Of a stretch of 32,000 nucleotides of DNA, positions 12,910-32,000 are shown piece by piece. Origin of the DNA: Shewanella sp. GD04112 (GTDB lineage: Bacteria > Pseudomonadota > Gammaproteobacteria > Enterobacterales > Shewanellaceae); assembly GCF_029835735.1 (NCBI RefSeq), contig NZ_JAOEAL010000001.1, positions 2,470,530-2,502,529 on the forward strand. The letters are read 5' to 3'. Each line of letters starts with the position of its first letter. Position 1 is the first letter of the stretch. The position numbers were made by a program, and so were the translations under genes. A model generated the notes under the pieces. It saw only the letters and a list, made by a program, of their open reading frames with translations. It was not told where the DNA came from and made no database searches.

Positions 12910-14241
12910 ATGTTCCAAACAGAAAGACTATCAGCTCTTTTAAACCAGGTTCGAATGAACGAGCCTGCATTACACATTGAGCCAAACGAATACCTTTATT
13001 TGGCAGCCATGAGCTTATGGAATGTAAACGACGATGACGATTACCGACTTGTCGACCCAGGATATAAGGAGGAACAGTGCAACGAAATATTCTCCTACGT
13101 TGACAGGTGGCTGGGTCAAGACGACATCACCTCATTCCGGACAAGTAATTTTCTAAAACGAGCTGTTGAACAGGGCCTCGTAATGCAGGCCGGAAGCTCG
13201 TTAAGAAACGCTGATGGCTTCTATCGACTTACTCAGCTGAGTCACGACCTCCTCAAGCCCTTTACCGGCGACACATTGATACAGAAAGAGTCACTTTCTC
13301 AGAGATATGTACGGTTGGAGATCTTGCTTGGGAACCTACTCGTCTTGAAGATAGAGGATGACGAAGAGTGGGCTAATGAGATTAAGGCTCAGCTACCTTC
13401 ATTTAGGGACCTTCTCGATGGTATTAACAAAAACCAGGAGGCCTTAATAAAAGGGTTTCAGCTTCAACGCAGCTCGATCCAGTCAGCAGCCAGCGGCTCT
13501 CTTGCGCAACAAATGCAGCACTTGATTGAGTTAATTGACGAGATTGCAGGCCAAATAAGGGACCTAAAATCGTTGATACTGAATGGGGCGGACAATGTGC
13601 TTTCTCTACTTCATGAAATCAAAGAGATGGCACATAACAGAAATGCTCCGATCAGACTTACCAATGCTATGGCTGATATTCATGACCAGCTGGATTCTAT
13701 TCGTCAGTTCTCTGGGCACTCTCTTCTGGAGCTAGCAGAGTTCTTTGAGCAAGTTTTATCCACTATCCGCCTAAAAATCACCCTAGATCCAAACGCGAAT
13801 CTCAATTTATTGATTGAAAAAGCAGTCCTGCAAATGGATCGGATGCCTTGGTCAATCTCTATTCTTGCGCCAGATCCTGTTGTGGAGCTCAGGGATTGGG
13901 AGGCTCCGCCTCCACCTTTGGAAAACGAACTGCCAAATGATGGCGACCCTGAAGTCATCCTTAGAAAGACCCCTAGCGACTACCTAGAAAAATTAGCTAA
14001 GGGACTCGTTGCGAGAATGTATGAGAGCGATAACGAGGTCGATATTTCAAAAGTTGCCGACCAGATCCTTTCCAATGAAGAGTTTCAATATAAAGACCGC
14101 CATCGGTTGCTGTTTTTCATCTTCGATGAGTTGATAAAAAACGGAGATTGGACACGCCCTGCCTATCACCCTGAGTGGGTACAATTAGCACACGATAATA
14201 ACGTTGAAATTGAACAACAGTGGTTCAAAAAATATGACTGA
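12910..14241 (+). CDS. jetA: MukF-like kleisin (JetA/MksF-class) subunit
   Basis: 443 aa; E. coli MukF is about 440 aa. The N-terminal winged-helix region ..FLKRAVEQGLVMQAGSSLRNADGFYRLTQLS.. resembles MukF ..[30 protein letters not shown]... There is an acidic/proline linker (WEAPPPPLENELPNDGDPE). The C-terminus EWVQLAHDNNVEIEQQWFKKYD resembles MukF [20 protein letters not shown]. The E. coli strings are from memory. Confidence 0.7.
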   Translation: MFQTERLSALLNQVRMNEPALHIEPNEYLYLAAMSLWNVNDDDDYRLVDPGYKEEQCNEIFSYVDRWLGQDDITSFRTSNFLKRAVEQGLVMQAGSSLRNADGFYRLTQLSHDLLKPFTGDTLIQKESLSQRYVRLEILLGNLLVLKIEDDEEWANEIKAQLPSFRDLLDGINKNQEALIKGFQLQRSSIQSAASGSLAQQMQHLIELIDEIAGQIRDLKSLILNGADNVLSLLHEIKEMAHNRNAPIRLTNAMADIHDQLDSIRQFSGHSLLELAEFFEQVLSTIRLKITLDPNANLNLLIEKAVLQMDRMPWSISILAPDPVVELRDWEAPPPPLENELPNDGDPEVILRKTPSDYLEKLAKGLVARMYESDNEVDISKVADQILSNEEFQYKDRHRLLFFIFDELIKNGDWTRPAYHPEWVQLAHDNNVEIEQQWFKKYD

Positions 14242-15016
14242 TCATCTATTTACACACGCTCAAGACTCAAAGAAACAGTACCTTACACTAGATGATGTAA
14301 TTGATGACCCCCTATTCGCGGATGTAGATTATCGCCTTAGGGGCGGGGTAAACATTACTAGTGAAGATGACCGGTTACATACCTTTCTAGGAGAGACGGA
14401 GAGTGTGCTTCGCAAGTTTTACGGCAAGTTACACCTGGCTCTAGAAGTCACGCCTGAGAAAGTTTATTACCTAAGGCCACAGCGTCGTTCAAATGTTCCT
14501 ACGACCCGATTGAACCAATTAGAAATGGTTATGGGTCTAACGATAGTTGCAATGCAATGGGAAAAAAATGCGACTGATTTCGAATGGATCCCCGTTGATT
14601 TTCTTATTGAACGATTGAAGTCTCAGCTGTCGGACGAACGGTTCGCTGAGTTGTATCGCCGTAAGCCGGGCATTCAGACAGACCATGATGTAGGGCGTGT
14701 GAGAGAGGAAACGTTGAAGAGACTCTCTAGACTGTCACGTCTGAGTTTTATTAGGCTCAACAGAGATGAGCAGACTTTCTGGGCAACTAATGCGATCTAC
14801 AGGTTTATCGAACCTTTGAAAGGCTTGAGCAGCGAAGACGAGTTGCCAGGCCGCATAAGTTCGTTAATCCAAGAGGGTTTTCTTACCGACTCACCTTCGC
14901 CCAGAGAAGAGTTAAGAGACACGCCAAGAACAGAGTCTGAACATTGGTCATCAGAAGGCCTAACTATCGAAGGTGATACTCGCGATATGTTTGATGCGGA
15001 GGAATATGATGCGTAA
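14234..15016 (+). CDS. jetB: MukE-like KITE (JetB/MksE-class) subunit
   Basis: DPLFADVDYRLRGG...FYGKLHLALEVTPEKVYYLRPQRRSNVPTTRLNQLEMVMG parallels E. coli MukE NPLFPALDSALRSG...[40 protein letters not shown] (from memory). It has an acidic C-terminal tail. ATG 14234 overlaps the upstream stop (ATGACTGA). Confidence 0.75.
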   Translation: MTDHLFTHAQDSKKQYLTLDDVIDDPLFADVDYRLRGGVNITSEDDRLHTFLGETESVLRKFYGKLHLALEVTPEKVYYLRPQRRSNVPTTRLNQLEMVMGLTIVAMQWEKNATDFEWIPVDFLIERLKSQLSDERFAELYRRKPGIQTDHDVGRVREETLKRLSRLSRLSFIRLNRDEQTFWATNAIYRFIEPLKGLSSEDELPGRISSLIQEGFLTDSPSPREELRDTPRTESEHWSSEGLTIEGDTRDMFDAEEYDA

Positions 15017-18000
15017 TTACCCATACATAAAGAGCCTGTCGCTTGTGGGCGTCAACGGAGTCTCTGCCAGAACCCTCGATTTAGTTAATCCTCATGAACA
15101 TCAGACTGATAGGCAATATGGCACCGTGGTTAGCCTTTTAGGCAAAAATGGTTCAGGGAAAACGACGCTACTTGGGACCTTTATGTTGGCTCTCTTACCC
15201 GATATTCGCTCGGTCAGTTTGGGAACATCGGATAATTTTACTCAGACGCAGAAGATGCAGGACGCAGAAATGTTTGAGCGCTTGGGTAATCCGTCTCTTA
15301 TTGGGTTAGAGGTTGTATCTCGTGCTGGTGAAAGAGCGCTGTTTATTGTTCGCTCTGAGCGAGAGACGGGGTCCCGCTTGAAGTTTGACACGTTCAGGGT
15401 TGGGTTGTTCGATAGTTTAGCACCACTTGATTTTCTTATCGTTCGTAACGGCAACATGGTTACGCCCAGAACTATAGATGGTATTCGAGATATAGCTGCC
15501 GAGCATGGCTGCCGACTACAAAGCTTCGACAAGATTGATAAATACATGCTGGCGTTGTTTAACGATGGTATTTTGCCCAGAACATTCAACCGTTCTAATG
15601 AGCGTTACCAATTAGGTCAGATTTTTCACAGCGCCATGTCAGGAAAAAGAGATCAAGCTATCGGCCGAGATCTAGCTGATTTCCTAATGACGCACTCAAG
15701 GACAAATATCAAAAGTGTGGTCGATGTGTTGTCTGGAACAATGCGAAAGCTTAGGCAGACAAGAGATGATCTGGCGCACAACTCCAAAGACTATGCGTTT
15801 TTCAAGGAGTTGTTAGAGAAGTCCTTCACTGTATCAGCTAAAGCATGGGCTCAAGCCGAGTACAATTTTTCTCGAGCAGATAAAGAAGCTACATCCTGTC
15901 GACAAGATGTTTCAGAGTGCAAAGTTTCTATTGAGAAGAGTGATCAGGATCTTACGGAGTGTCGTTCGAAACTAGATACAAGCGTTGAGAATAGAACATC
16001 ACTCGAGCAGGAAAGTGAACAGCTAAAGCCAAGACTTGCTTCTGCTGTTGAGGGCGAAATCTTCTACAAGCAGGGTAAACAAGCCTCTGTGAGTCTATTA
16101 AAGAAGGAAGCTCAACTTTACGAGAGTTTGAGTTTGTCCCAGTTGGCTGACGAAGGCGCTGACGCGTCGCGCAACAAAGTTGAACAAGCTAATCAAGATA
16201 TCTTGGATATCCAAGCACAGCTCGCAGATGTGCAAGAACGTTTTATCCTTCTTGAGAAAAAGGCGGGGCAATACCGAAATGCGAAGTCGTTATTAGATAG
16301 CGTCAAGAGCTGGTGTGGCGATAGCTTTGAACTAGCGAAGCTTAAGGGCATGATTGAAGAATACACTGCACAATCCAAACAGCTAGCGCTAGAGGCGGAC
16401 CAGCTGGGAAACAAGCTCAATAGTGCAGAGAATATCAATGAAATTCATGCTAAAGCTGCATCACTGATTCGACGCGCTGGCGATAGCATTGACCCAAACG
16501 TCGCAAAGAATTGGTTTATCTCTACAGAGCTTAGACTCGAAGAGGAACGCCCGCTAGCCGTTAGCCTTGAACAGATGAGAAATGGATTGAGTGCGTTGAA
16601 AAGGAATCATCGTACTGTGAACCGCATGCTTGATCGCTTTAAGCAAGCAAAGTTACCACGCATGCCTTCCAATGAATCTGAGTACCAACAGCTTACGGAA
16701 GACAGAGGAGAAGCTCTTGAGTCGGCGAAGGAGGTGAAAGCGAGTGTCGATGCTAGGTATGAGGACGAGCGACATATCCAGGAAGAGCTAAAGATCGAGG
16801 TTTCACGTCTCAAATCGCTGCGAACAGAGTGGCAAAATTATCAACCTGCGGTTGCACGTTTATATGAATGCTTCCCTGATACTCAATTCACGGCAGAGAT
16901 GTTAGATGGGTTGATTAAAAACACGCAGAGAGAACTCAGGTCATTACGAGAGAATAACTCCCGAATAGAGAGCAATATATTTTCTTTGAAAGAGAGGATC
17001 CTTTCACTCAGCAACAGGGAAACTGGGTCATTGGAAACCCTCCAACGTTTTGCCAGCGATGTTGGCGGAGTGGCCGTAGCGGACTTGTATAGCGATATAC
17101 CGTTAGAAGAAGCTGGATTCACCGAAGCGGCTTTAGGTCAGCTTATGTGCGCTATCGTAGTGAATGACCCGAGCGATGCGGCTAGAACGCTATTAGCTGA
17201 ATATGGTGATAACTGGCCATTACCTGACGTGATCTTAATGACTGTAAAAAACCACAGTCCTGATCAACTACGGAGTGGTGGCTATGACGCGGACCTGTTT
17301 TTTAAAGATCTTAGTCAAGAGTTTGTAGGTGCTGATCTAGACCTTAATCACAACGAAAATGATGTTCCTTGGGTAGTTCTCAGTGAACCCTTTGGCGGTA
17401 TACGTGTTAGCGGGGTGCCTACTGAACCAGTTTTGGGTAAAGAGGCTCGGGATAAGCTGATAGCAGATCTACAAATTGAGTTAAATTCAAAGCAAACTTT
17501 GTTTGACAGTAACGATGAGAATATATCGCTGCTGCAAAGTGGCCTAGAGCAAGCCAATCGAATCAACGTTAATCCCTCATTGGCTTTCGCTGTTGAGCCT
17601 AATGTTGAGCTCAAAAAACAGAAATTACAACAACAAGGTAATAAGGTAGCTGACCTGTACTCTCAAACGTTGCAAGCGACCAATCGCGTAAAAACCTTAG
17701 AACTACAATGCAGTTTGCTTGAACAGCATGCGGATTCAAGTGATTTGCTAGACGTTAACTTCGACAAGGAGATTATGGAAGCAGAGGAACAAATCATACG
17801 TTCTGAAAAGGCTAAAAAGTATGTCGATAGGTACGGCGGTACCTTCTCGCAGATAAAGCAGCAATACCCGAAGATTCGAGAAGATTATCAATCTGACATA
17901 GACACGCTAAAGCGACAACATCAACTCGCTGAACAAGATCTTAGCAATACCAACAACCGCAAGCGCGATTTAACCTCGCTTAACCAAGTGGCGAATCATC

Positions 18001-19562
18001 TCGCTGACGATTACGAGCAAGCACAAAACGATCTTGCGAAAGAAGATGGAAACGTAAGTTCATTGCGTGAGAGGCACAAACAGAAACGTGTCATGCTCGA
18101 TGAGTTGAAGGTTCAGTTGAGAGAAAGCGAAGATAAAGCACGCAAAAACAAAGAGGTACATCTTAAGCTTCAATCGGAATATTCTGTGTTAGAAGAGCAG
18201 GTTGCGGAATCAAAACGTAGTTTGTCAAAGCTGACTTACCCTTATTGCGAAGGACTCGAAAAACAACTTTCACTCGATAGCGAAACGATATCTAAACGAT
18301 TGAGAGCGGCTCAAGAGCAATGTGAATCACTCCAACTTAAGCAAGTATCATTAACCGAACGCCATAACACCCTACTCAAGCAAGTAGAATCCCTACAGAG
18401 TACATCAGTGATTGCAGAAGAGGCGCGTGAAAATGCAAATGGTATAAAGCAAAAGGTGCTGGATGCTCTGCCTGCCGGAGCCACAAAACATAAGCTAGAG
18501 CAAGAAATGGACGTCTATTTTAAACTGATGCATGAAGGTGAGGCCGTCCAATACACTAATGGGATTTACGCAATATCTGGATTGGTCAATCGCTATGGTT
18601 TGAGTCGAGATGATGAGTTCTCCCAAAAAATAAATAGTTTTAATCTAGAGGGAGGGACCACCCTGCCTAGTCTTTGCCAGCTGCATAGTGACGCTATTTC
18701 TTTGTTTCGTCGGCAAGCCCGAGGGGACATTATTCGTAGTTCCGAGCCGACAGAGATGCTTACACAATTGGATAGTGCGTGTAGTCTCGCTAGGAGAACA
18801 CTTGAAAGCGCCGAAGAGCAGTTTCTCACAGATAGAAATGAACTAGGAAATGCCATTGCCCGTCGTGTACAGGATGAGCAGAAAGCCATAAGAAGGCTAA
18901 GTGCTGAAATGATAGGAATAAGCTTTGGGCAAGTTGCGGCTATTCGTCTAGTACCTAAAAGCGTCCCTCATTTCGAAGCTACTTTGAAGGCTTTGAGAGG
19001 AAGCGACGATGTCATGGACGATCTCTTCAATAATGCTGAAGATGTAGAAGAAGCGCTCGCAACACTATATCAAAAAACCACTGGTGGCCGGATCGAGGGA
19101 GAAAAGCTGCTTGACCATAAGAACTACATCAATGTGGTAACAGAAATCCAGAGAGTTGGTAGTGAAGAATTTGAGTTATTGGATGACAAAACACTTTCAA
19201 CAGGAGAGCGAATTGGCTCTGGATTGGTTGTCTTAATAGCAATTCTAAAAAACTGGGGACGGGTCTCACATGAAAAACAACCTTTCTTAATCCCGTTAGT
19301 AATGGATGAAGCATCACGTTTGGACTCCGACGCTCAGAGAACGGTGCACCAGTTGGCGGTAAAGACCGGAAGTCAGATTGTAATTGCCGCACCTGAGTCG
19401 CAAGGAAAGATATCAGGTGTTGGCTATCAACTTGTCAGAAGTGCTTCTAAAGCAGGTAACAAAGAGAGCCGTGTAATCATTAGTGGGATCCGGGATGCTG
19501 ACAGTTTAGGGATTGATGAAGAAGCATTTATCGATTCGGTTGTGAGTGGGGCGGCGCATTGA
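15006..19562 (+). CDS. jetC: MukB-like SMC ATPase (JetC/MksB-class), 1518 aa
   Basis: - SD GGAGGA precedes ATGATG at 15006.
- N-terminal head: IKSLSLVGVNGVSARTLDL, Walker A GKNGSGKTT (15141-15167), ALLPD.
- Very long coiled coils.
- Hinge-like VADLYSDIPLEEAGFTEAALGQLMCAIVVNDPS.
- C-terminal head: SFGQVAAIRL...LSTGERIGSG...LVMDEASRLD (D-E at 19305-19310)...QIVIAAPE...GYQLVR.
- Each motif matches MukB motifs as I recall them. Confidence 0.85.
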   Translation: MMRNYPYIKSLSLVGVNGVSARTLDLVNPHEHQTDRQYGTVVSLLGKNGSGKTTLLGTFMLALLPDIRSVSLGTSDNFTQTQKMQDAEMFERLGNPSLIGLEVVSRAGERALFIVRSERETGSRLKFDTFRVGLFDSLAPLDFLIVRNGNMVTPRTIDGIRDIAAEHGCRLQSFDKIDKYMLALFNDGILPRTFNRSNERYQLGQIFHSAMSGKRDQAIGRDLADFLMTHSRTNIKSVVDVLSGTMRKLRQTRDDLAHNSKDYAFFKELLEKSFTVSAKAWAQAEYNFSRADKEATSCRQDVSECKVSIEKSDQDLTECRSKLDTSVENRTSLEQESEQLKPRLASAVEGEIFYKQGKQASVSLLKKEAQLYESLSLSQLADEGADASRNKVEQANQDILDIQAQLADVQERFILLEKKAGQYRNAKSLLDSVKSWCGDSFELAKLKGMIEEYTAQSKQLALEADQLGNKLNSAENINEIHAKAASLIRRAGDSIDPNVAKNWFISTELRLEEERPLAVSLEQMRNGLSALKRNHRTVNRMLDRFKQAKLPRMPSNESEYQQLTEDRGEALESAKEVKASVDARYEDERHIQEELKIEVSRLKSLRTEWQNYQPAVARLYECFPDTQFTAEMLDGLIKNTQRELRSLRENNSRIESNIFSLKERILSLSNRETGSLETLQRFASDVGGVAVADLYSDIPLEEAGFTEAALGQLMCAIVVNDPSDAARTLLAEYGDNWPLPDVILMTVKNHSPDQLRSGGYDADLFFKDLSQEFVGADLDLNHNENDVPWVVLSEPFGGIRVSGVPTEPVLGKEARDKLIADLQIELNSKQTLFDSNDENISLLQSGLEQANRINVNPSLAFAVEPNVELKKQKLQQQGNKVADLYSQTLQATNRVKTLELQCSLLEQHADSSDLLDVNFDKEIMEAEEQIIRSEKAKKYVDRYGGTFSQIKQQYPKIREDYQSDIDTLKRQHQLAEQDLSNTNNRKRDLTSLNQVANHLADDYEQAQNDLAKEDGNVSSLRERHKQKRVMLDELKVQLRESEDKARKNKEVHLKLQSEYSVLEEQVAESKRSLSKLTYPYCEGLEKQLSLDSETISKRLRAAQEQCESLQLKQVSLTERHNTLLKQVESLQSTSVIAEEARENANGIKQKVLDALPAGATKHKLEQEMDVYFKLMHEGEAVQYTNGIYAISGLVNRYGLSRDDEFSQKINSFNLEGGTTLPSLCQLHSDAISLFRRQARGDIIRSSEPTEMLTQLDSACSLARRTLESAEEQFLTDRNELGNAIARRVQDEQKAIRRLSAEMIGISFGQVAAIRLVPKSVPHFEATLKALRGSDDVMDDLFNNAEDVEEALATLYQKTTGGRIEGEKLLDHKNYINVVTEIQRVGSEEFELLDDKTLSTGERIGSGLVVLIAILKNWGRVSHEKQPFLIPLVMDEASRLDSDAQRTVHQLAVKTGSQIVIAAPESQGKISGVGYQLVRSASKAGNKESRVIISGIRDADSLGIDEEAFIDSVVSGAAH

Positions 19563-20509
19563 TGCATGGACTACTGGAGGATGTAAAGTTAACACCTAAG
19601 CAGGCACTGGCACTTATTGATAAGCTTATTGAGCGCGGGAAAGTGTTGCCCAACCAGAGAGATAGTTTACTGATTGAGCGCCTTGAGCAACTTGGCATAG
19701 TGAAACGAGTGGGGAGTTACTGGCAGCTGTGTGAGCCCCAACGCATTGAGAGTGTTCGTAACCAAATAACGCAATATACTTTGCAAAAAAACAGGCCTGG
19801 TATCTTACGAAAGATGCCCGTTGTACATCATAAAAGTGCTGCTGCCTGGCGAGGACATAGCAAAAGTGGGCAAGGCGAGGCTCTTCAGAAAGGTCAACTG
19901 ATAAGTACAGACGATGTAGTACGGGTCCGCACTCAGAAGACCGGGTTCGTAATATACAGCGATAACGCCACGATTGATACTGACTTGGAGACTCTGCAAA
20001 GGACTGAAGTCAGCTTACCAGAACGGTTGTACAAAGACGCTCATGCGCCCTGTGTCGCTGGGGTAAAGTTGGTGTTGACTGTCGAAAACTTGGGCACATT
20101 TGTTGACTTCCCCATGGTGGATGGACTCGTATTGGTTTACTCATCAGGGAATAACTTTGCATCATCGGTTTGTTTTATCAAGCGCTTCTTGGAAGAGGTG
20201 ACCTGGGCACACTTCCCGGACCTTGATCCCAATGGTCTGATCATATCAACGCAAATGGCAGATACCCTCAACAAACCTTGCAATGTTTGGATTCCACCTC
20301 ATTGGGATAGGGTCCGAGCTCAGCCGCTGGTTTCTGGTAAAGGAAAAAAGGTATGGGGGGAAGCCCCTGCCTGCCCTGAAATCGCAAGTTTGCAGGAAAC
20401 AAGCCATTGGGTTGAGCAAGAGGTTCTCGTCTTAGATCAACGAAGCGTCAAAGCCGTCAGTGAGCTTGTTAGTGAGCCTAAGCTCCGGCTAATAACTCTT
20501 CAATACTAA
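19562..20509 (+). CDS. jetD: JetD/MksG-type Toprim (topoisomerase-VI-like) nuclease subunit, 315 aa
   Basis: The start overlaps the jetC stop (TGATG). Toprim signature: VLTVENLGTFVDF (Glu codon 20084-20086), WAHFPDLDPNGLII (DxD 20228-20236), then HWVEQEVL. The N-terminus looks winged-helix-like (LIDKLIERGKVL..LEQLGIVKRVGSYWQL). Confidence 0.7.
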   Translation: MHGLLEDVKLTPKQALALIDKLIERGKVLPNQRDSLLIERLEQLGIVKRVGSYWQLCEPQRIESVRNQITQYTLQKNRPGILRKMPVVHHKSAAAWRGHSKSGQGEALQKGQLISTDDVVRVRTQKTGFVIYSDNATIDTDLETLQRTEVSLPERLYKDAHAPCVAGVKLVLTVENLGTFVDFPMVDGLVLVYSSGNNFASSVCFIKRFLEEVTWAHFPDLDPNGLIISTQMADTLNKPCNVWIPPHWDRVRAQPLVSGKGKKVWGEAPACPEIASLQETSHWVEQEVLVLDQRSVKAVSELVSEPKLRLITLQY

Positions 20510-20699
20510 AGATTTTACGATTGACAGTTCAGGCGGCAGTTAATCAAACATTGTACTCGGCGAAGCTGATGTTCGTGCAGTGTGTCGACAATTCCGCTAC
20601 AGGGAAAGTCTCAATTCATTGCCTGGCGAACAATAGCCTAGCTATGCCCATAAGAAGCAGTTATCTGACTAGTTTACTTCTTAAGAATAAGGATACTTA

Positions 20700-23566: not shown

Positions 23567-23571
23567 CCCCC

Positions 23572-24621
23572 TTGCCTGAGCGCATAGCATTGATTGCCTT
23601 AATCCAAGAGGCCTATACCAATGGTGCTCGCCTTTATAAGGCTTGTGCTGAAACGGGCCTCAGTAAGCGTACCTATCGACGTTGGTATCGAGAAGGTCAA
23701 GTGCAAGCTGATTTAAGGCCAACAGCAGCTCGACCAGAGCCAGCAAATAAACTCGAAGAACATGAGCGACAACAGATATTAAGTGTGTGCAATCAAGCGG
23801 AGTACGCCAGCTTACCCCCGTCGCAAATTGTGCCAACATTATTAGATAACGGGATTTATATCGCCTCGGAATCCAGCTTCTACAGAGTGTTAAATGCTCA
23901 TGGTCAACTTAACCATCGTGGCCGCACTCAGGCTGCGGTCAATCGAAGCAAACCGTTGAGTTATCGGGCAGATGGGCCGAATCAAGTGTGGTCATGGGAC
24001 ATCACTTATTTAGCCTCAATCGTCAAAGGCCAGTTCTACTATTTGTACCTGTTTGAAGATATTTACAGTAGAAAAATAGTGGGTTACGAAGTTCATGAGC
24101 AAGAAAGTGGGGAATATGCCGCTGCGCTAATCCAACGCTGTCTGTTACGCGAGCAATGCTTTAACACGCCATTAGTGCTGCATTCTGATAATGGGGCGCC
24201 GATGAAGTCACTGACCATGAAAGCCAAGCTGGAAGAGCTTGGTATTACGGCATCATTAAGTCGGCCGCGGGTGAGTAATGACAACCCCTTTTCAGAGTCG
24301 TTATTTAAAACGTTGAAATACCGCCCACAGTGGCCGGCATCAGGTTTTAGCTGCTTAGCAACAGCAAGAGAATGGGTGGAAAAGTTTGTAACCTGGTACA
24401 ACGATGAGCATAAACACAGCCAGCTAAATTTTGTCTCACCAGGGCAACGTCATGCACTGCAAGATGGCGCTATTTTAGCGAAGCGCAAGAAAGTGCTTGA
24501 GGCGGCGAAGGAAAGAAAACCGATGCGTTGGTCTACAGAGATCAGAAATTGTGAAGCGGTTGGCGCTGTAACACTCAACCCAGATAAGGCACCAGAAGAA
24601 GGCGTAATAAATGCAGCTTAA
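23572..24621 (+). CDS. IS3-family transposase OrfB (DDE integrase core; expressed as an OrfAB fusion)
   Basis: WSWDITYL (D), LVLHSDNGAPM (D), SNDNPFSESLFKTLKYR (E); rve-type core. The frame is -1 relative to orfA. Confidence 0.8.
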   Translation: MPERIALIALIQEAYTNGARLYKACAETGLSKRTYRRWYREGQVQADLRPTAARPEPANKLEEHERQQILSVCNQAEYASLPPSQIVPTLLDNGIYIASESSFYRVLNAHGQLNHRGRTQAAVNRSKPLSYRADGPNQVWSWDITYLASIVKGQFYYLYLFEDIYSRKIVGYEVHEQESGEYAAALIQRCLLREQCFNTPLVLHSDNGAPMKSLTMKAKLEELGITASLSRPRVSNDNPFSESLFKTLKYRPQWPASGFSCLATAREWVEKFVTWYNDEHKHSQLNFVSPGQRHALQDGAILAKRKKVLEAAKERKPMRWSTEIRNCEAVGAVTLNPDKAPEEGVINAA

Positions 24622-24764
24622 TATTTAAACAAAGAGTGACAACTATCTTGAAAAACACCGAAGTCGCCGACTCTAACTATGGCGATTCTGCGCCGCTTAC
24701 TACTAATAATCATTAAGTTAATTATTCTTAAATATCTGAAAGGAAGCACCTATGATAGGCATTA

Positions 24765-25106
24765 TTGCCGATTGTCTTGGTTTACCTGGGCGTCCTACTC
24801 TTTTTAAGCCAGATTCTGCTATGGAAAATGCCTGCTGGGGGCAAGAAAACAATGGTTTCTCTGCTGCTGTTGCCGCTGCTGGCAGGCCTAAGCTTTATTG
24901 ATGAAATATGGGCCAGGCACCAGTTTCAGGCCTTATGCGCAGAAGATAATTTACTAAGCTACCAGGCGGATAAGGTCAGGGGGCAAGCGGTCAGCACCAA
25001 AGCGCTGATCCGGAACAATATCAGCGCAGCCGTGCCTATCGTTGAGCATACCCGGTACTGGTTTGTAGCTGGCACTGATGACATCGTGATCACCAGCAAA
25101 AGTTAG
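24765..25106 (+). CDS. Hypothetical small membrane protein (2 predicted TM helices); doubtful start (TTG)
   Basis: Hydrophobic N-terminus IVLVYLGVLLFLSQILLW and LLLLPLLAGLSF. It is more GC-rich than the DNA downstream. A competing ATG at 24752 with a good SD lies in another frame. The ORF ends at a TAG that is in frame with the next ORF. Confidence 0.25.
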   Translation: MPIVLVYLGVLLFLSQILLWKMPAGGKKTMVSLLLLPLLAGLSFIDEIWARHQFQALCAEDNLLSYQADKVRGQAVSTKALIRNNISAAVPIVEHTRYWFVAGTDDIVITSKS

Positions 25107-26018
25107 TTAGAAAATGGAAATTTATCTCCTCAAGATGCTGAGAAGCAATTAAGCGACATCTTAGTTCCGTTATTAAATGAAGATGGGTATAACATTGTTC
25201 AGACTCCTTTTCGCGGTGACATTGGAGTAGATTTTATTGCTGAGAAGCAACTTTCCACTAACCTAGAGCAAGTGGGAATCGAATATAAGCACTATAAATC
25301 TGCTGTAGGTGTCGATGCTGTTCGCCGGTTACTGGGAACAACATTTACTCACAACTTTGACCGTTTAATTTTAGTAACCAAATCTCGTTTTACTAAAGCT
25401 GCCCTTGAGCTTGCGAATTCGGCTTTACCAGTCAAGCTTGAACTAATTGACTTAGATGCTCTAAGAGCGTGGGTGCAGAGAGCAGAAAAAACTGAAGACT
25501 ATGACTTCGAACTAGTAAATATTATTCGTTCCAATATTAGCGAGCGGTTAGCAGTGCTAATAGCTAAAAATCCGCGATATCTAATGGATATTGAATGGAG
25601 AGAGCTTGAGTATGTTATTCAAACCGTTTTTGAAGAGCTAGGGTTCAGCGCAGAACTTACCCCAGGAAGCAAAGATGGCGGTAAAGATTTAGTGCTTACC
25701 TGTAGGATTTCTGGGCAAGATCATACATATTACGTAGAGCTGAAGCACTGGAGATCCCAACAAAAAGTAGGTGGACAAGCTGCTAGAGGTTTCCTGAAAG
25801 TGATTGTTAATGAAGAAGTGAATGGTGGGTTATTTCTTTCTTCATATGGTTATTGTGAGAATGCGTTTGAAATGTTGACTGAAATTGACAGAAAACATTT
25901 AAAGTTCGGCGATCAGAAAAAAATCGTTACATTATGTACACAATACGTTAAGTCTAAATCTGGTATTTGGTCTCCTACTAGCGGTTTATCGGAAGTATTG
26001 TTTGAACAAACTATATAA
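25107..26018 (+). pseudogene. Tandem Mrr-like (PD-(D/E)xK restriction-endonuclease fold) domain protein with no credible start for domain 1
   Basis: Domain 1: GYNIVQTPFRGDIGVDFIAEK...VGIEYKHYKS..VGVDAVRRLLG...LILVTKSRFTKAA. Domain 2: LGFSAELTPGSKDGGKDLVLT...YYVELKHWRS..VGGQAARGFL..GGLFLSSYGY. The frame is open from 25107, immediately after TAG 25104-25106. The first in-frame start (GTG 25272) falls inside the E-x-K motif of domain 1. Confidence 0.5.
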
Positions 26019-26046
26019 ATTCGCCTAACAAGGCGCTCAAGAATGA

Positions 26047-26069
26047 CAAAAAACGCTTGGCGTTTTTTG
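26047..26069. terminator. Bidirectional terminator-like palindrome (A6-stem-loop-T6)
   Basis: caaaaaacgc ttg gcgttttttg, 29 nt after the Mrr-like stop codon. The GC core of the stem is short. Confidence 0.4.
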
Positions 26070-26277
26070 CATCTTAGCTTTGCGTTAACCCATAGAAATT
26101 TTTATCCGAAAATGTCGAGTTAGAGTTAAGGCTTTAACTCGGAATTGTCCAATTACTTGATAGAGCATTTAATACAAATGAAAGAATAGGGCGGAATAAA
26201 AGTAGTCACAAAATTAGTGTTTTAAGATGCTTATTACATTGACAAATGCCATACATTTTTTACAAGGAAGCATCTTC

Positions 26278-26748
26278 ATGATATCAGTAACTTTTCACGA
26301 AAACTCGAGGCGTACACGTCAATTCAAGTCTGAAAATGGAGCTTTGAAGGCCGTATGGAAATGGCTTAAAGCAACAGAAGACGATAACGCCTATGCAGTG
26401 ATTATTGGTCCTATGTATTCTGAGCCAAGAGTCATCAAAGGCTGGCAAGAACTTCCATTCAGTGAACCTGAAAATTTAGACTTTTTGCAGACTAAGGAAT
26501 GGCGTCGACTGAGACAACAGGCCTTTGAGTTATATGGAAACTTTTGTGCCTGCTGTGGTAGAGGTCCAAAAGATGGCGTAGTGCTTCATGTAGATCATAA
26601 AAAACCTCGTTCGAAATATCCAAAACTTCAAGATGACATCAACAATCTTCAGATTCTTTGTGAAGAACACAACCAAATGAAATCCAATACATCTGAGCGC
26701 GATTGGGCTCAGTGGTGCCAAGCCAACTCTGTACGTGGCACTAAATAG
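26278..26748 (+). CDS. HNH endonuclease (small, stand-alone)
   Basis: Classical motif CACCGRGPKDGVVLHVDHKKPRSKYP....NLQILCEEHNQMKSN. The ATG at 26278 follows aaggaag; the track start at 26227 is less likely. Confidence 0.8.
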   Translation: MISVTFHENSRRTRQFKSENGALKAVWKWLKATEDDNAYAVIIGPMYSEPRVIKGWQELPFSEPENLDFLQTKEWRRLRQQAFELYGNFCACCGRGPKDGVVLHVDHKKPRSKYPKLQDDINNLQILCEEHNQMKSNTSERDWAQWCQANSVRGTK

Positions 26749-26834
26749 TCCAACACAAGGGTTAGTGAGGCACGGGCACGTGTCGAAGTATTCATAAATC
26801 AGAGCGACTGTTGTTATAAACACTCAGACACAAA

Positions 26835-26904
26835 ATTCTCACGTATTTCAGAATAGAGCACCTAAATCAGAATAGTGAGAACATTCTGATTCTCAGTGAG
26901 AATT
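26835..26904. repeat. Cluster of the same about 24-bp units as at 10436-10537, here in opposed orientations (mini-palindromic block)
   Basis: attctcacgtatttcagaatagagc (26835-26859, + orientation). atcagaatagtgagaac is a partial copy. cattctgattctcagtgagaat (26882-26903) is in inverted orientation and is part of IR-R. Confidence 0.8.
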
Positions 26905-26908
26905 GTCA
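26882..26908 (-). repeat. Right terminal inverted repeat (IR-R) of the accessory segment
   Basis: Its reverse complement, TGACAATTCTCACTGAGAATCAGAATG, matches 10431-10457 at 25/27. It ends ..CA at 26907-26908 and is followed by CGCA (26909-26912), the same tetranucleotide that precedes IR-L. Confidence 0.8.
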
Positions 26909-26944
26909 CGCATAGGGAATAGTGCTTTCCATATTTACTCACAT

Positions 26945-27178
26945 TCAATTTAACATAATATACATTGTGCGCATCCTTTTTTTTGAGGAATGTTCACACA
27001 GCCTTTTTGAGTCGGCCAGTATTAAGAGAACGTGCCATATAGGGAACATGATCACGATTGAGACATAGAACTCAGCCATAGATTTAAACTCAATTTCAGA
27101 TTCAATAGGAACCCAAAGAGTAACTTTAGTTAGACCAGAGGCGCGCTTCTTAGCTTCATACTTAGAGTTGCGACTCAT
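26945..27178 (-). CDS. Small ORF with a ribbon-helix-helix-like N-terminus whose 3' end reads through dif
   Basis: MSRNSKYEAKKRASGLTKVTLWVPIESEIEFKSMAEF resembles RHH/DUF3018-type small regulators. The last about 10 codons (..KKRMRTMYIMLN) are encoded by the dif sequence itself. Confidence 0.4.
   Translation of the reverse strand: MSRNSKYEAKKRASGLTKVTLWVPIESEIEFKSMAEFYVSIVIMFPIWHVLLILADSKRLCEHSSKKRMRTMYIMLN
26948..26975 (-). other. dif: dif site (XerC/XerD chromosome-dimer resolution site), doubling as the prophage junction
   Basis: The plus strand reads ATTTAACATAA TATACA TTGTGCGCATC. The reverse complement of E. coli dif (GGTGCGCATAATGTATATTATGTTAAAT, from memory) is ATTTAACATAATATACATTATGCGCACC, giving 26/28 identity. 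Confidence 0.8.
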
Positions 27179-27348
27179 GGCGTCACCAGTGACGGGGCAT
27201 TCTTAGCACCTTCAACAGGTATCAACTCGCAAAAGGAATTAATAAAATCGAAATAAGTGTTATGAGTATAGATAACACCGAGAGCAAAACCTAAGAAAAC
27301 AAAAACAAGTAAAACAAAAACAACAAAAAGTATTTCTTGAATATCCAT
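27175..27348 (-). CDS. Small phage membrane protein (57 aa)
   Basis: One strongly hydrophobic helix (ILFVVFVLLVFVFLGFALGVIY). ATG 27348 follows ggag. It overlaps the next ORF start (ATGA-type). Confidence 0.35.
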   Translation of the reverse strand: MDIQEILFVVFVLLVFVFLGFALGVIYTHNTYFDFINSFCELIPVEGAKNAPSLVTP

Positions 27349-27368
27349 AAATATAATCTCCAATTATT

Positions 27369-27400
27369 GGGAGGGGGCGCTCCGCTTGCCTCCCCCTCCC
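27369..27400 (-). terminator. GC-rich hairpin immediately after the zot-like stop codon
   Basis: gggaggggg (27369-27377) pairs with ccccctccc (27392-27400) across a 14-nt loop. There is no clean U tract on the minus strand, so a terminator or attenuator role is tentative. Confidence 0.35.
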
Positions 27401-28740
27401 TACCTATTTGCAAGCGAGTATTCACGGTCAGATTGATTAGTTTCAGGTTTGACCTTAATCAAGGGCTGACAAGTGATAAAAGTAGTAAAGTCATTAAATT
27501 TAAGTCTGGCTAAACATTCAGTTATAGGTGAGACAACAAATCCAACCGAACTAGGTAAAAAAACCTCATCAGTAACGGGATTGTAAAAGGAATAATCATA
27601 ATGAACTAAGCCATTGGATTTTTTTACATACTGGGAACCTGAAATATAAACATCCTTTGTAGCATCAGAAACGAACTTAGTTAAAAGCTGTGTTTCAGCA
27701 TCATCAAGTAAAGATGATGATTTAGGCAAAAGAGAAACTTTTGACTTGGGCTCATTAGGGGATGCAGTCTCAGGCGTTTGGAGAACTGAGTCAGGGACAG
27801 CAGAGGTTTTATCAAAAAACAATGTATTGGCAAATGAGTAAACAGAAAAAACAACAACAAAAATAAGAATAATCAAAATATAAAATATCTTGGGCATCTT
27901 AAATTTATGGGTATGCAGTTCAGCACTAAAATAAGAGCCATAGAAATTCGTTGGCCTCTTAATTAATGACTTTTGGCAATTTTTGACATCGTGATAATCA
28001 TCAACATCAAAACTTTTTGAGTTCTGATAACGAGCGACACGGTTAGAGTTAAACGCATTATGATAGTGAACATGGCGATTGACTAAACGCCTTACGTTAC
28101 TATCTAAAAGCATTCTATCCTGTGTAATTAAATGTATATCGTAACCATCATGGCGGTGAGTCTCAAATTTTGAAATATGAGGTGGAACTGTAGAACCCAC
28201 AGGACGAGGCGGGAAAAATTGCTGACACTCATCAATTAGGATAATGCTCTGCTTTGGTAGATTGAACCAATCCTTAGGGTTAGCAAAATGAGTAAAATGT
28301 AAATTCAAGTGCTCAAGGTGTGAGAACTCAACCTTATCGTAAGGCATATTGCTTAGGAACTCATCAAGCAGAGCCGTCTGCTTTGATGAATAAAGTTTTT
28401 TAACCCAAAACAGCCAAGTGTCTAGATGGTTGGCCGTATTGTAATAAGGCTCAAGCCAAGGAACGTCAGACAGTTGAATCAAATCACCGTTATCGTGAAC
28501 CCGTTTGATAATTTTACGAATGCGCTTTAGTGCCTGTTTGTTCTTCAAACGGTACATATAAAGACCGTAGAACCAGCCAGAAAAACTAGAGGCAACCTCA
28601 AAATCAAGCATCAACAACTTGATGTTATTATAAAAAATTGGCCTAGTGCCATTATTAGCGCCAACAAGATAAGCAATGGTATTCAGCGATTTAGACGCGC
28701 CCGGCTTCCCTGTAACTAACTCTAACATTATGCGCTCCAA
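27400..28740 (-). CDS. Zot/pI-like phage assembly ATPase
   Basis: N-terminal P-loop ELVTGKPGASKS, a Walker-B-like IILIDECQQFF, a single central TM helix (IFYILIILIFVVVFSVYSF), then a periplasmic C-terminal domain. This is the architecture of filamentous-phage gene I/Zot proteins. Confidence 0.8.
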   Translation of the reverse strand: MERIMLELVTGKPGASKSLNTIAYLVGANNGTRPIFYNNIKLLMLDFEVASSFSGWFYGLYMYRLKNKQALKRIRKIIKRVHDNGDLIQLSDVPWLEPYYNTANHLDTWLFWVKKLYSSKQTALLDEFLSNMPYDKVEFSHLEHLNLHFTHFANPKDWFNLPKQSIILIDECQQFFPPRPVGSTVPPHISKFETHRHDGYDIHLITQDRMLLDSNVRRLVNRHVHYHNAFNSNRVARYQNSKSFDVDDYHDVKNCQKSLIKRPTNFYGSYFSAELHTHKFKMPKIFYILIILIFVVVFSVYSFANTLFFDKTSAVPDSVLQTPETASPNEPKSKVSLLPKSSSLLDDAETQLLTKFVSDATKDVYISGSQYVKKSNGLVHYDYSFYNPVTDEVFLPSSVGFVVSPITECLARLKFNDFTTFITCQPLIKVKPETNQSDREYSLANR

Positions 28741-29078
28741 TCAACAGGTGATTTGTCGCCCGGCTTACGCCAAACAAGCTGCCTAGAGTAGCCGCTTTTG
28801 GAGACTCCTTTTAATACCATAAGCGCAACGCCGCTAGACATTGCAATATTTAAAGCCGTATCAATCCCAAGTAGGTGAATAAAAGTGGCTATATGAGGAA
28901 ATATAATTGAAGATGCAGAAGCATTTAAACGGTTAATTATTTCGTCAAAAATAAAACCTACTCCCGCATAAGTAACTGTACCAAAGCCAATAGCAACACC
29001 AATACGAGCAACAGAAGCGGTAATAAATTGACCAAGGAAAGGAAAAATAGAAGCAAGTAATAAAGGTATGAATTGCAT
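28728..29078 (-). CDS. pVI-like minor coat/membrane protein
   Basis: 116-aa polytopic hydrophobic protein located between the pIII-like and Zot-like genes, with overlapping stop/start. Assignment is positional only. Confidence 0.5.
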   Translation of the reverse strand: MQFIPLLLASIFPFLGQFITASVARIGVAIGFGTVTYAGVGFIFDEIINRLNASASSIIFPHIATFIHLLGIDTALNIAMSSGVALMVLKGVSKSGYSRQLVWRKPGDKSPVDWSA

Positions 29079-29087
29079 ATTTACCCC

Positions 29088-30659
29088 TTAGTGATATTTG
29101 ACAATCATTAAACCAGAAGCAACAGAAGCAAACGCAATTAAGAAGAACTTAATAACAGTTGCCAAGTCACAGAATGGTGATAAGTCGATAGTAAAGGTGG
29201 TAATTTTGGCATCAACAACATAAGGAGGTGGACAGGTATCAGAACCACCAAAATTAACACCGTTAGAAGAATTGTAATGCTCAGTAAATTGTTTTATGTC
29301 TACAGTGCCAGCATCTAAATTTTTAATATCAGAATCTTCACTATTTATAAAATCAGTAAGTGAATTTGTGGCAGCATTAACAGATTCAGAGGCAGAAAGT
29401 TCATCGGCAATAGTTTTACAACGGGACTCCCACTCCTTACGAGCGATATAGCATTGTGGGCTATTGGTAGAGCATACAAAAGTTTCGCAACCGTTCTCAG
29501 TAATAGCATCAGGGTCAGAGCCAGAGCCATCGCCAATCTTTCCAATGGCATCGACAATACTTTGCTCGGATTTACCAATAGCGCCTTCAATATCACGCAT
29601 ACGAACAGCAATATCTGTAAGGTTACTGTTTGCATCTAAAAGCTGCTCGACAACATCGGAATTATCAGAAGATGCACCACCAACAGAGCCTTTAATATCG
29701 GACAGAGTACTATTTACTTTCATTAACTCATTATATTGAGCCATCATCATTTCTAGCTTCTGCATTTCGAGTTGTAAGTCACCACCACCACCTCCACCTC
29801 CACCTTGAGCAATACGGCCTAATAAATCAGTAATAGTATTTGAAAGAGTATTATTTATAGCAGGGATTGAGGCAGAATTATTATTTATATTAGAAGAATC
29901 GGAGCTAATTTGACCTAACTTGTCTGCCATATAACCCAAAACTTGCATATATTCACCAGTAGAAGATGAACCGCCGCCAGATTGGGCTTTAATAGAATCT
30001 CGAATTTCAGCTAGGATAACTTGATTCTGTGAAACCCATTGCGTTTGGTATTGAATATCCGAGCGAACGCCACTCACACCACTGGCAAGAGCATTGCCTA
30101 AACCATCGGTACGATTAATTAAATCAGTGAACTGGTTAAAGTTCTGCCATCTTAATTGGTCAATAGATGTTTTAGTGTAAGAGGATTGTCTCGCACCCTT
30201 TAAAAGTGCGTCATAAATAACGCCTAAATCCGTGTGAATATCCTTAAGTTCAGTTGTAAAAGTAGTTGGCACCCAAGGATAAGGCGATAAGTTATCAGAA
30301 CTAGGGTCGGGAAAATTTGGGTTAGGATTTAGGTCAGGGTCTGGATTAGTACCACCGCCTCCGTCTTGACAGTTGTTAACGTCAGTTTCAAAGTAAACCA
30401 TCCAAACAGTGCAAAATGGGTTTTGCGGGTCGCCAGTTGCACAAACTAAATTTGTGCCCTTCCATGAAAAATCGTTTGAATCACATTGGGTATGGAAAAA
30501 AGCATTAGCGTCAGACTCAGCAGTAGCGCCAGTAAAATCAAAGGAAATTTCAACGCCAGGAGTTGCAGGTGGGGAATAAGCGAACGCAGGAGAACTTAAA
30601 CAAGCTAAAAGAAGATACGCCGCACGCAATCTGTAAGAACGAGAAGGACTAAAAGCCAT
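29088..30659 (-). CDS. pIII-like adsorption/minor coat protein
   Basis: Signal peptide ..LLACLSSPAFA. Cys-containing N-terminal domain. Pro/Asn/Asp-rich linker (GGGTNPDPDLNPNPNFPDPS). A Gly8 run. C-terminal membrane anchor (FFLIAFASVASGLMIVKY). It sits directly after the major coat gene. Confidence 0.65.
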   Translation of the reverse strand: MAFSPSRSYRLRAAYLLLACLSSPAFAYSPPATPGVEISFDFTGATAESDANAFFHTQCDSNDFSWKGTNLVCATGDPQNPFCTVWMVYFETDVNNCQDGGGGTNPDPDLNPNPNFPDPSSDNLSPYPWVPTTFTTELKDIHTDLGVIYDALLKGARQSSYTKTSIDQLRWQNFNQFTDLINRTDGLGNALASGVSGVRSDIQYQTQWVSQNQVILAEIRDSIKAQSGGGSSSTGEYMQVLGYMADKLGQISSDSSNINNNSASIPAINNTLSNTITDLLGRIAQGGGGGGGGDLQLEMQKLEMMMAQYNELMKVNSTLSDIKGSVGGASSDNSDVVEQLLDANSNLTDIAVRMRDIEGAIGKSEQSIVDAIGKIGDGSGSDPDAITENGCETFVCSTNSPQCYIARKEWESRCKTIADELSASESVNAATNSLTDFINSEDSDIKNLDAGTVDIKQFTEHYNSSNGVNFGGSDTCPPPYVVDAKITTFTIDLSPFCDLATVIKFFLIAFASVASGLMIVKYH

Positions 30660-30729
30660 ATTAAATCCTGTAATGTGATAAGCATAAAACCCCTAAGGAG
30701 GGGCAAGCCCCTCACAGAGAAAACGACTA

Positions 30730-30933
30730 TTAGCCGAAGATTGCGCCTTTAGCCCATTTAAAAACGACCGCGATAGCAGCAAGGCCAAGCATGGCACCAC
30801 CGACAGCAGTTAACGCAGCAGAACCATCGGTAGTAATCGCTGTTGTAGCAGCAGTCACATCGATAGCAGCACTAGCAGAAGAAGCAGCAACGGCAGAACC
30901 TAAAGCCACAGCGGATACAAGGTACTTTTTCAT
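30730..30933 (-). CDS. Major coat protein (pVIII/Cep-like)
   Basis: 67 aa. Signal peptide MKKYLVSAVALGSAVAASSASA. The mature part of about 45 aa has an acidic/neutral N-terminus, a hydrophobic core and a basic C-terminus (..VVFKWAKGAIFG). Confidence 0.8.
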   Translation of the reverse strand: MKKYLVSAVALGSAVAASSASAAIDVTAATTAITTDGSAALTAVGGAMLGLAAIAVVFKWAKGAIFG

Positions 30934-30948
30934 AAATCACCTATTTAG

Positions 30949-31164
30949 TTAGAAGCCGATTTGACGGCGGACGAGTTTTATAACAAATGCAATTGCGTAG
31001 AGTCCCGCAATAGCACTAAACAAAGCAAAGACCTCGGGCTGAGTGATTTGATTATCAAGCTGTTTAGCTTCAACAAGTAGATAACCGTCACAAGGGTCAG
31101 CGGTAGATACCTGTAAAAGAGTACCGCTTAGGCCGTTGGGAACCTCAACAACACAGAGAGCCAT
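30949..31164 (-). CDS. Small hydrophobic phage protein (pVII/pIX-position minor coat candidate)
   Basis: 71 aa with a C-terminal TM helix (VFALFSAIAGLYAIAFVIKLV). Assignment is positional only. Confidence 0.4.
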   Translation of the reverse strand: MALCVVEVPNGLSGTLLQVSTADPCDGYLLVEAKQLDNQITQPEVFALFSAIAGLYAIAFVIKLVRRQIGF

Positions 31165-31176
31165 TGCTTTGAATCC

Positions 31177-31497
31177 TTACGCCTTGCGAACAGCAGTAGG
31201 CGCTTCAAAAAGATGGAAGCCGTTAATAGAAACGTGCTTGCCTTCAGCATTAGCAAAAGACAATTCTTTATATTCGATTGAAAGAGTAATCCGCTGGTCA
31301 ACGGAAGCCTTCAAAGTCTCAATAGTTTTATTATCTTTTACAAGAGCCTCTGAAACATGAACATCTAATATCTGTGAAGGTGAAGATGCTAAAAAACGGA
31401 AAACACCAACATCAACAGATTCACCAGTCTGGTAATTTTTGATTTTTGGTTTAATTTGAATATCAGTTAAATCGGGGATTCTGCCTTCAATTTTCAT
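31177..31497 (-). CDS. Candidate ssDNA-binding protein (gene V position)
   Basis: 106-aa soluble, beta-rich-looking ORF immediately downstream of the replication gene, with SD aaaggaaatacaaaATG. Assigned by size and position only. Confidence 0.45.
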   Translation of the reverse strand: MKIEGRIPDLTDIQIKPKIKNYQTGESVDVGVFRFLASSPSQILDVHVSEALVKDNKTIETLKASVDQRITLSIEYKELSFANAEGKHVSINGFHLFEAPTAVRKA

Positions 31498-31556
31498 TTT
31501 GTATTTCCTTTCAGTTAAAAAAATGGGTCGGGACAGTTATTGACACGAGTCCAAGG

Positions 31557-32000
31557 CTAATGTCGAAACACCATAGCGCTCGCTTCGCTCGCTGGTGTTT
31601 CATCATTAGCTAAAGCATCAAGCCATAAAGCTTGCATTTCTTCATACTCCTGCACATGGCGCTCATATTCGGCATAGTCCTGTTCGGCCATACGTTGATA
31701 TTCGCGCTCCATTTCGAGAATGTCGAAAATATCAACAACGCCAGACATGACTTGCTTACGGGCTGCTATGTACTCCTCTTTGTTGACAAGCTTCCAATTT
31801 TTGAAGCGGGTAGCCTTGAAAACGCCGTGAAAAAGAACGCCATTAACGCGAGCGTGAGCAGCATCGCCATAGCGGGTTTTTGCATGTTCTGGCGCATCAA
31901 AAAGTTTGGAGATAACCGCGGGAACGGCATAATGGGTTTTTACAGTTTGGTCGGCGCGGCGAACAAAAATACCGCCCATGGCCATGCAGAAAGCGCCCCA
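31557..32000 (-). CDS. Phage replication-initiation protein (gene II/RstA-like), C-terminal part only; 5' end lies outside the window
   Basis: The minus-strand frame is open from the window edge (..WGAFCMAMGGIFVRRADQ..) to the stop at 31557. It is the first gene of the phage module. Assignment is mostly positional. Confidence 0.45.
   Translation of the reverse strand, partial: WGAFCMAMGGIFVRRADQTVKTHYAVPAVISKLFDAPEHAKTRYGDAAHARVNGVLFHGVFKATRFKNWKLVNKEEYIAARKQVMSGVVDIFDILEMEREYQRMAEQDYAEYERHVQEYEEMQALWLDALANDETPASEASAMVFRH

Follow-up and report, generated by a model that had tools for sequence, protein, structure and literature searches.

Wadjet systems, described also under the names MksBEFG and JetABCD, are operons encoding a kleisin, a KITE subunit, a structural maintenance of chromosomes (SMC) ATPase and a Toprim nuclease, and are represented by the type I systems of E. 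coli GF4-3 and P. aeruginosa PA14 and by MksBEFG of C. glutamicum. The housekeeping condensin MukBEF of Enterobacterales, Vibrionales and Alteromonadales is also present in Shewanella. Filamentous phages of the CTXphi type belong to the integrative mobile elements exploiting Xer (IMEX), and their attachment site (attP) is known to comprise two inverted sites in a forked hairpin. Characterised Wadjet cuts circular DNA of up to about 100 kb regardless of sequence. BrxR and CapW are repressors of defence operons, CapW being released by single-stranded DNA (ssDNA) (PMC11662680), and an association of the family with Wadjet has been noted (PMC11662680; PMC9122601). Here we describe a stretch of 32,000 nucleotides from Shewanella sp. 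GD04112 (contig NZ_JAOEAL010000001.1, positions 2,470,530 to 2,502,529; hereafter the window) that holds an SMC-nuclease cassette of the Wadjet group, a divergent BrxR-type regulator gene and a filamentous prophage related to Shewanella phage Dolos, which is integrated at dif a few kilobases from the cassette. In our judgement, cassette and prophage are probably two independent mobile elements that have come to lie at one recombination hot spot.

The cassette consists of four genes on the forward strand. The first (12910-14241) encodes a MukF-like kleisin of the MksF/JetA type with 443 aa, which gives weak matches to Pfam KicB and MukF_M (the winged-helix and middle domains of MukF), aligns over its full length with the NCBIfam MukF model at 71 bits against a cut-off of 407, and matches the MukF chain 7nyw_C in the Protein Data Bank (PDB) with an E value of 6e-6. 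Its word-index homologues number only 10, and every one lies in the same type of cassette. The second gene, which ends at 15016 and starts at 14204 or at 14234, the latter corresponding to the start annotated in strain ANA-3, encodes a MukE-like KITE subunit of the MksE/JetB type (260-270 aa; PF21980 MksE, 4.5e-23; PF04288 MukE, 3.1e-18; MukE in the PDB, 1.8e-14). The third (15009-19562) encodes an SMC ATPase of the MksB/JetC type that, with 1517 aa, is the size of MukB; it matches the Pfam MukB N-terminal domain (2.8e-19) and MukB_hinge (1.1e-14), and the only PDB chains it retrieves are those of MukB (9gm6, 183 bits over residues 20-1494, and 7nyw over the full length). The alignment shows its Walker A (GKNGSGKT), signature (LSTGE) and Walker B (VMDEA) motifs to be intact. 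The fourth gene (19559-20509) encodes a short-form Toprim nuclease of the MksG/JetD type (316 aa), with an N-terminal winged helix followed by the Toprim domain and matches to PF09983 JetD_C (2e-6) and to the PADLOC JetD model (8e-7). The family alignment shows no variation at residues E176 (TVENLG), D221 and D223 (FPDLDPNG), E286 and E288, and E176 together with D221/D223 provides the E...DxD catalytic signature of Toprim enzymes. A profile built from this alignment matches C. glutamicum MksG (8b7f) with an E value of 1.5e-5, and an AlphaFold model derived from it (pLDDT 86.5) has MksG, Spo11, P. aeruginosa JetD and Topo VI-A as its top Foldseek matches. Since they are co-directional and overlap, by 8 nt at the E/B junction and by 4 nt at the B/G junction, the four genes presumably form one operon.

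Judged by its parts, namely a kleisin, a KITE subunit, an SMC ATPase with its motifs and an adjoining Toprim nuclease with the catalytic glutamate and DxD, this cassette falls within the Wadjet group. The domain, PDB, motif and fold matches thereby uphold the preliminary description, which had placed a Wadjet-type SMC nuclease system and a WYL gene here. Its label of "Muk/Jet-like" holds for the group and has to be narrowed for the type: the PADLOC models for JetA, JetB and JetC gave no match at E <= 1e-3, only weak matches to JetD of type I being returned, and a PDB search with the three structural proteins found no JetA, JetB or JetC chain, only Muk chains at low scores. Because the PADLOC models for these three subunits stay silent, no type can be assigned and the cassette stands outside the three standard Wadjet types; on sequence grounds it represents a rare clade on the Muk side of the Wadjet group and not a typical type I-III system. 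It shares with Wadjet the gene content of the operon, a nuclease fold that matches MksG 8b7f and JetD 7til with the E...DxD residues kept, a position in a defence island and the company of a BrxR-type regulator, as is found with some Wadjet systems. Unlike Wadjet, its structural subunits resemble MukF, MukE and MukB in sequence rather than JetA, JetB and JetC, its SMC protein is approximately 1517 aa long with a MukB-type hinge where JetC has roughly 1100 aa, and its nuclease has 316 aa compared with roughly 400 aa in JetD.

The cassette is rare. A word index covering 5.8 billion proteins holds only 10 homologues of the nuclease. Of 1.84 billion representatives searched with a hidden Markov model, 496 matched at E <= 1e-3 and 130 also at E <= 1e-30. 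Across 185,579 species, each represented by a single genome, 92 loci came to light; 80 of these were fetched for neighbourhood analysis, and nearly all of the 80 show a MukB-like head directly upstream of the nuclease. A close clade with full-length F, E and B proteins at 36-53% identity comprises Pseudoalteromonas and six Enterobacteriaceae, and further FEBG copies occur in Vibrio fluvialis, Photorhabdus bodei (with mukB split), Duganella and TARA metagenomes. The neighbours are often defence genes (AbiE, Gabija-like, HEPN) or genes of mobile elements. Among complete E. coli genomes the cassette occurs in 1 of 5426, adjoining Gabija-like genes, and there the NCBI annotation pipeline (PGAP) names its products 'MukE', 'mukB' and 'Wadjet anti-phage system protein JetD domain-containing protein'. 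The clade is already catalogued, and hence not new as such: the copy in S. halotolerans, with a MukF-like protein that clusters at 90% identity with the window kleisin, is listed as an 'FEBG' operon of the Wadjet group in Data S1 of Burmann et al. 2025 (PMC7617805).

The right end of the window holds the left 5 kb of a Dolos-like inovirus prophage of about 8.3 kb (26975-32000 and on past the window end; reverse strand). On this strand lie the genes for Zot/pI (27400-28740; Pfam Zot), a pVI-like DUF2523 protein (28728-29078; Pfam DUF2523), a pIII-like protein (29088-30659), the major coat protein (30730-30933; Phage_Coat_B), an ssDNA-binding protein (31177-31497) and the C-terminus of Rep (31557-31985), besides small open reading frames (ORFs) and a small coat-like protein. 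The full gene set, including a 714-aa Phage_GPA Rep, is found on Logan contigs L013 and L014, and no integrase is among the genes called on L013, the full-length phage contig of 8.26 kb. The phage shares 77% nucleotide identity with Dolos over 78% of the query and has the same gene order (Rep, ssDNA-binding protein, small protein, coat, pIII-like, pVI-like, Zot). The preliminary description had proposed a dif-integrated filamentous prophage, and this gene content, together with a dif site at its left edge, bears the proposal out; the right junction and possible tandem copies lie outside the window.

The left prophage junction is the dif site itself, ATGCGCACAATGTATATTATGTTAAAT (26948-26974, reverse strand), which has 2 mismatches to E. 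coli dif and was matched in 0 of 100 shuffles. In strain ANA-3 an intact dif is followed by chromosomal genes and the phage is absent. Identity between the window and ANA-3 stops at 26973, within dif, and the empty ANA-3 site differs at the outermost base of the XerC arm, so the XerD arm and central region of the window site are chromosomal and its XerC arm is phage-derived; exchange with a phage site on the XerC side would produce such a base change. Dolos itself has two inverted dif-like sites about 120 nt apart, the attP junction of this type having the form ATGCGCACAA-TGTG, and the second dif-like site is found also on L013 (36-62). Folded as ssDNA, the packaged strand being assumed from gene orientation, Dolos 6548-6705 forms a forked hairpin of -27 kcal/mol (z -3.2) that 0 of 200 shuffles equalled. 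The phage thus resembles CTXphi-type IMEX in its inovirus module without a called integrase, its insertion exactly within dif where a relative has the empty site, and the inverted dif-like sites and hairpin attP of Dolos; unlike CTXphi, it is without toxin cargo. The inovirus has been integrated at dif by XerCD recombination, probably as folded ssDNA through a CTXphi-like hairpin attP, and given such an attP, lysogeny need not pass through a double-stranded circle. Dolos has been reported as not integrating in S. oneidensis MR-1.

The run that yielded contig L013 also produced sequence of the island in which the cassette lies (L008). L013 has its start within the spacer that separates the inverted dif-like sites (L013 1-62) and ends at ...ATGCGCACAATGT, equivalent to window position 26962, which is the last base common to the integrated junction (TGT-ATA) and the Dolos-type attP (TGT-G). 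Such an end point is the de Bruijn graph branch expected if both junctions are in the reads, which suggests that the reads contain a phage-phage junction, whether from the replicative form (RF) or from a tandem prophage. Two further observations concern the surroundings of dif. Judged by eye, a small ORF beside the attachment site (26945-27178, reverse strand; N-terminus MSRNSKYEAKKRASGLTKVTLWVP) seems to have gained or lost one base relative to its counterpart in Dolos, so that its frame runs across dif rather than stopping. A gene for a 431-aa tyrosine recombinase adjoins the XerC-arm side of dif in both ANA-3 (L005 14638-15933) and S. xiamenensis (L100 12107-13402), and this flank is 87% identical between ANA-3, with the island, and S. 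xiamenensis, without it.

The cassette lies in an accessory island of approximately 16.8 kb (10120-26945) that fills the stretch between the fdhE stop codon and a point 2 nt short of dif. The dif site (26948) and zot are 6.4 kb and 6.9 kb away, respectively, from the stop codon of the JetD-like gene (20509), in agreement with the distance of about 7 kb given previously; the terminus-proximal location proposed with it is likewise supported, by the dif site and by the homologous loci, which in ANA-3 occupy 2.51-2.53 Mb of 4.97 Mb and in S. xiamenensis 2.34-2.36 Mb of 4.69 Mb. The spacing of roughly 6.5 kb is accounted for by an island that abuts dif and a phage that must use dif, and proximity alone is no evidence of a functional link. 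ANA-3 is 100% identical to the window over 10702-22991 and 24661-26973, and an identical island with an unoccupied dif occurs in ANA-3 and at least 9 other assemblies. Given an identical island beside an empty dif, with identity ending inside dif, the simplest history is that the island came first and that the phage and an insertion sequence (IS) were added later; the genome into which the phage integrated thus most likely had the island before. With such a history, the system would not have prevented lysogeny in the window strain. The co-residence of the two kinds of element has a parallel in P. aeruginosa PA14, which carries the filamentous prophage Pf5. As the same strain carries a type I Wadjet system (PMC11878078), finding both in one genome is not exceptional.

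None of the 80 related cassettes, all from other species, had a homologue of the window phage's Zot or pIII within 10 kb by tblastn, and such proximity is therefore not a recurrent feature. The screen would miss divergent inoviruses, however, and this limit is one of several points that weigh against independence of the two elements. Another is that the island comes within 2 nt of dif. In Duganella guangzhouensis FT80W, moreover, a dif-like site, ACTTCGCATAATTTATATTATGTAAAAT (L004 18303-18330), lies 7.3 kb downstream of the JetD-like gene and beside a Tn3-family transposase gene, with about 0.001 such matches expected by chance in the DNA that was searched; it is a second lineage with the cassette a few kilobases from a dif-like site. 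An island abutting dif and the Duganella case together mean that some link between the cassette and the dif region may exist. The order of events is, in addition, an argument from parsimony, and the circle-cutting mechanism is extrapolated to this clade by analogy, given that the PADLOC models for JetA, JetB and JetC do not recognise its three structural subunits and that characterised JetD exceeds its nuclease by about 80 residues.

The regulator gene is divergent from the operon (11867-12778, reverse strand, with its start at 12778 or 12733 and the longest ORF reaching 12811). It encodes a wHTH-WYL-WCX protein of the BrxR/CapW family of transcriptional repressors, with the RWHVR motif and with matches to Pfam WYL (3.8e-14), PADLOC WYL (1.3e-24), Acinetobacter BrxR (7T8K, E 5.6e-59) and CapW (7TB6, 4.8e-38). 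A BrxR gene is found upstream of the cassette also in Pseudoalteromonas, in V. fluvialis and on one Logan contig. Domain architecture, motif and divergent position beside a defence operon are those of the BrxR/CapW repressors; the ssDNA ligand is known for the family, whereas for the window regulator it is predicted only. In the divergent intergenic region, a palindrome with 10-nt arms, TTAATGTATA-N5-TATACATCAA (12757-12781, forward strand), overlaps a consensus-level sigma-70-like promoter site, TATACA-17-TATATT (12772-12800, forward strand). We infer that this palindrome is the BrxR operator, and the divergent repressor presumably controls the operon.

Other explanations of the locus start from the cassette itself. 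If the operon were the housekeeping MukBEF condensin and the gene downstream of it unrelated, the 1527 bits scored against the NCBIfam MukB equivalog (cut-off 699) and the PGAP names MukB and MukE given to E. coli homologues would be as expected. The MukE score, however, is 63 bits against a cut-off of 250, and that of MukF is also far under its own; phmmer against genuine MukB gives just 183 bits; the locus is missing from S. xiamenensis, which does not fit a core gene set; the mukB-like gene shares its last 4 nt with a gene for a Toprim nuclease; and the operon is preceded by a BrxR regulator gene. The cassette is, moreover, a second set beside Gabija-like genes in one E. coli strain, which, as we assume, carries canonical mukFEB as well. 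The cassette has the subunit sizes, the F-E-B order and the MukB N-terminal and hinge domains of MukBEF, and differs from it in its nuclease partner and BrxR regulator, its accessory and horizontally spread occurrence and its sub-cut-off MukF and MukE scores, so that a housekeeping role is hardly tenable. The NCBIfam MukB model NF003422 reaches its 1527 bits on window 14973-19562, yet genuine MukB matches at only 183 bits, and it is this score that leads PGAP to the name 'chromosome partition protein MukB', with 'MukE' as partner, in E. coli DETEC-P881 (L114 7222-11805); the naming of a defence-type SMC protein as MukB/MukE is an annotation trap. It is also quite improbable that the cassette is a decayed or silent passenger, inactive and simply of no consequence to the phage. 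Its extreme rarity and the IS remnants and IS insertion in the island would suit a passenger, but all four ORFs are intact and overlapping, the IS lies outside the operon, and the ATPase and Toprim motifs are kept across lineages that share only 36-43% identity.

An active cassette raises the question of whether it acts on the phage. By analogy with characterised systems, the Muk-like complex would load on DNA, extrude it and cut when it runs round a small closed circle, and the repressor would hold expression low until released by its ligand, which in the BrxR/CapW family is ssDNA. The system might then restrict the RF of Dolos-like phages and other small circles that integrate at dif, with the prophage persisting through ssDNA integration, BrxR repression or both. 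For such antagonism speak a cutting range that extends to about 100 kb regardless of sequence and would make the 8.3 kb RF a formal substrate, a repressor family that is released by ssDNA, which filamentous phages supply, a hairpin attP that permits integration without an RF, and the intact catalytic residues. Against it, the phage apparently became established in a genome already holding the island, the end of L013 suggests that a second junction, be it from an RF or a tandem copy, was tolerated in an island-bearing culture, recurrent co-location was not seen in the 80 loci, and our literature search for Wadjet with filamentous phage, M13 or replicative form found no paper. We consider antagonism possible though doubtful. 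Three readings had been proposed earlier. That the operon is repressed is plausible, as the WYL protein is a close BrxR homologue and the palindrome overlaps the promoter-like site; that the phage escapes recognition is plausible too, as a hairpin attP would bypass the double-stranded circle in lysogeny. That the system limits competing dif elements finds no support, the phage having most likely integrated into an island-bearing genome. A more speculative and rather unlikely extension is that the BrxR-type repressor makes the Muk-like Wadjet an ssDNA-triggered alarm, after which MksFEBG would destroy the ensuing small double-stranded circles, so that an island at dif would police circle traffic and let only folded-ssDNA integrators pass. 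If this were true, the triggers would be incoming or rolling-circle ssDNA, whether it came from conjugation, from filamentous phages or from a satellite plasmid like pDolos. Set against these possibilities, two independent elements at one recombination hot spot is the reading we prefer.

The remainder of the window consists of core genes (1-10119), which encode a GH43-type protein, a transporter, a gluconolactonase, formate dehydrogenase subunits and fdhE, and of further island cargo. In S. xiamenensis, fdhE and fdhD are followed directly by dif. Homology to this genome ends at 10119 and restarts at 26946 in the window alignment, the island having replaced fdhD and a 270-bp spacer (L100 10900-12043); a 19/21-nt match at 10291-10311 is the lone remnant of the replaced spacer. 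The IS is an IS3-family element with two ORFs (22992-24660, forward strand; HTH_Tnp_1 and rve domains) and appears as an alignment gap against the otherwise identical ANA-3 island. The two ANA-3 alignment blocks have five bases in common, perhaps a target duplication. In the interval from the cassette to dif, a Mrr-type restriction endonuclease gene (25272-26018, forward strand; PF04471, 1e-29) and an HNH endonuclease gene (26227-26748, forward strand; PF01844, 3.2e-8), with mREase_IV and PtuB-like matches from PADLOC in the region 25272-26748, are further defence-type cargo. Downstream of the cassette lies a gene for a 436-aa Cys-rich protein with several CxxC pairs (20700-22010, forward strand), which has no match in Pfam, NCBIfam or PADLOC. 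The label 'rubredoxin' is attached to some of its homologues, and a gene that follows a TARA cassette shares 66% identity with it. The possibility of a fifth subunit was considered and rejected, since the family is broad (98 clusters) and extends to many genera outside those with the cassette; it is widespread on its own in Marinomonas, Idiomarina, Dickeya, Pectobacterium, Klebsiella, Vibrio and others. The gene is probably a separate module. An HD-domain fragment (22567-22857) and IS3-type OrfA remnants (about 11524-11763 and 22270-22470, both on the reverse strand) mark the island as a patchwork.

Nearly the whole island is enclosed by a 22-nt inverted repeat, ATTCTCAC[C/T]GAGAATCAGAATG, with copies at 10436-10457 (forward strand) and 26882-26903 (reverse strand), the right copy lying 45 nt from dif. 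The copies are identical at 21 of 22 positions, 0 such pairs being expected by chance, and the repeat stretches to 30 nt at 90%; there are extra sub-repeats, AATCAGAATGAG recurring at 10525. The layout resembles transposon-type ends, and matching transposase genes are missing from the island. The sequence GGGCGGACAA, which precedes the left copy, is one known from Tn7 ends; as the island is without tns genes, the idea of Tn7-like ends was not adopted, and we leave the match as an unexplained observation. Integration of the island itself by Xer recombination, through a second dif at its left edge, was likewise not supported: a search for dif at this edge found only a one-mismatch 11-mer at 10754, with 1.24 such matches expected by chance. 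By eye, a degenerate stretch near 10358 resembles a XerD arm and is not convincing.

Pipelines that name these proteins MukB and MukE, and PADLOC models that miss three of the four, mean that the Muk-like branch of Wadjet is probably under-counted in surveys of defence systems. The locus also offers an unusually clean setting for asking whether Wadjet acts on the RF of filamentous phages. The island exists at 100% identity both with the phage, in the window strain, and without it, in ANA-3; Dolos, a cultivable relative of the phage, infects S. oneidensis MR-1 together with a rolling-circle satellite plasmid; and the regulator of the cassette comes from a family that is now known to sense ssDNA.

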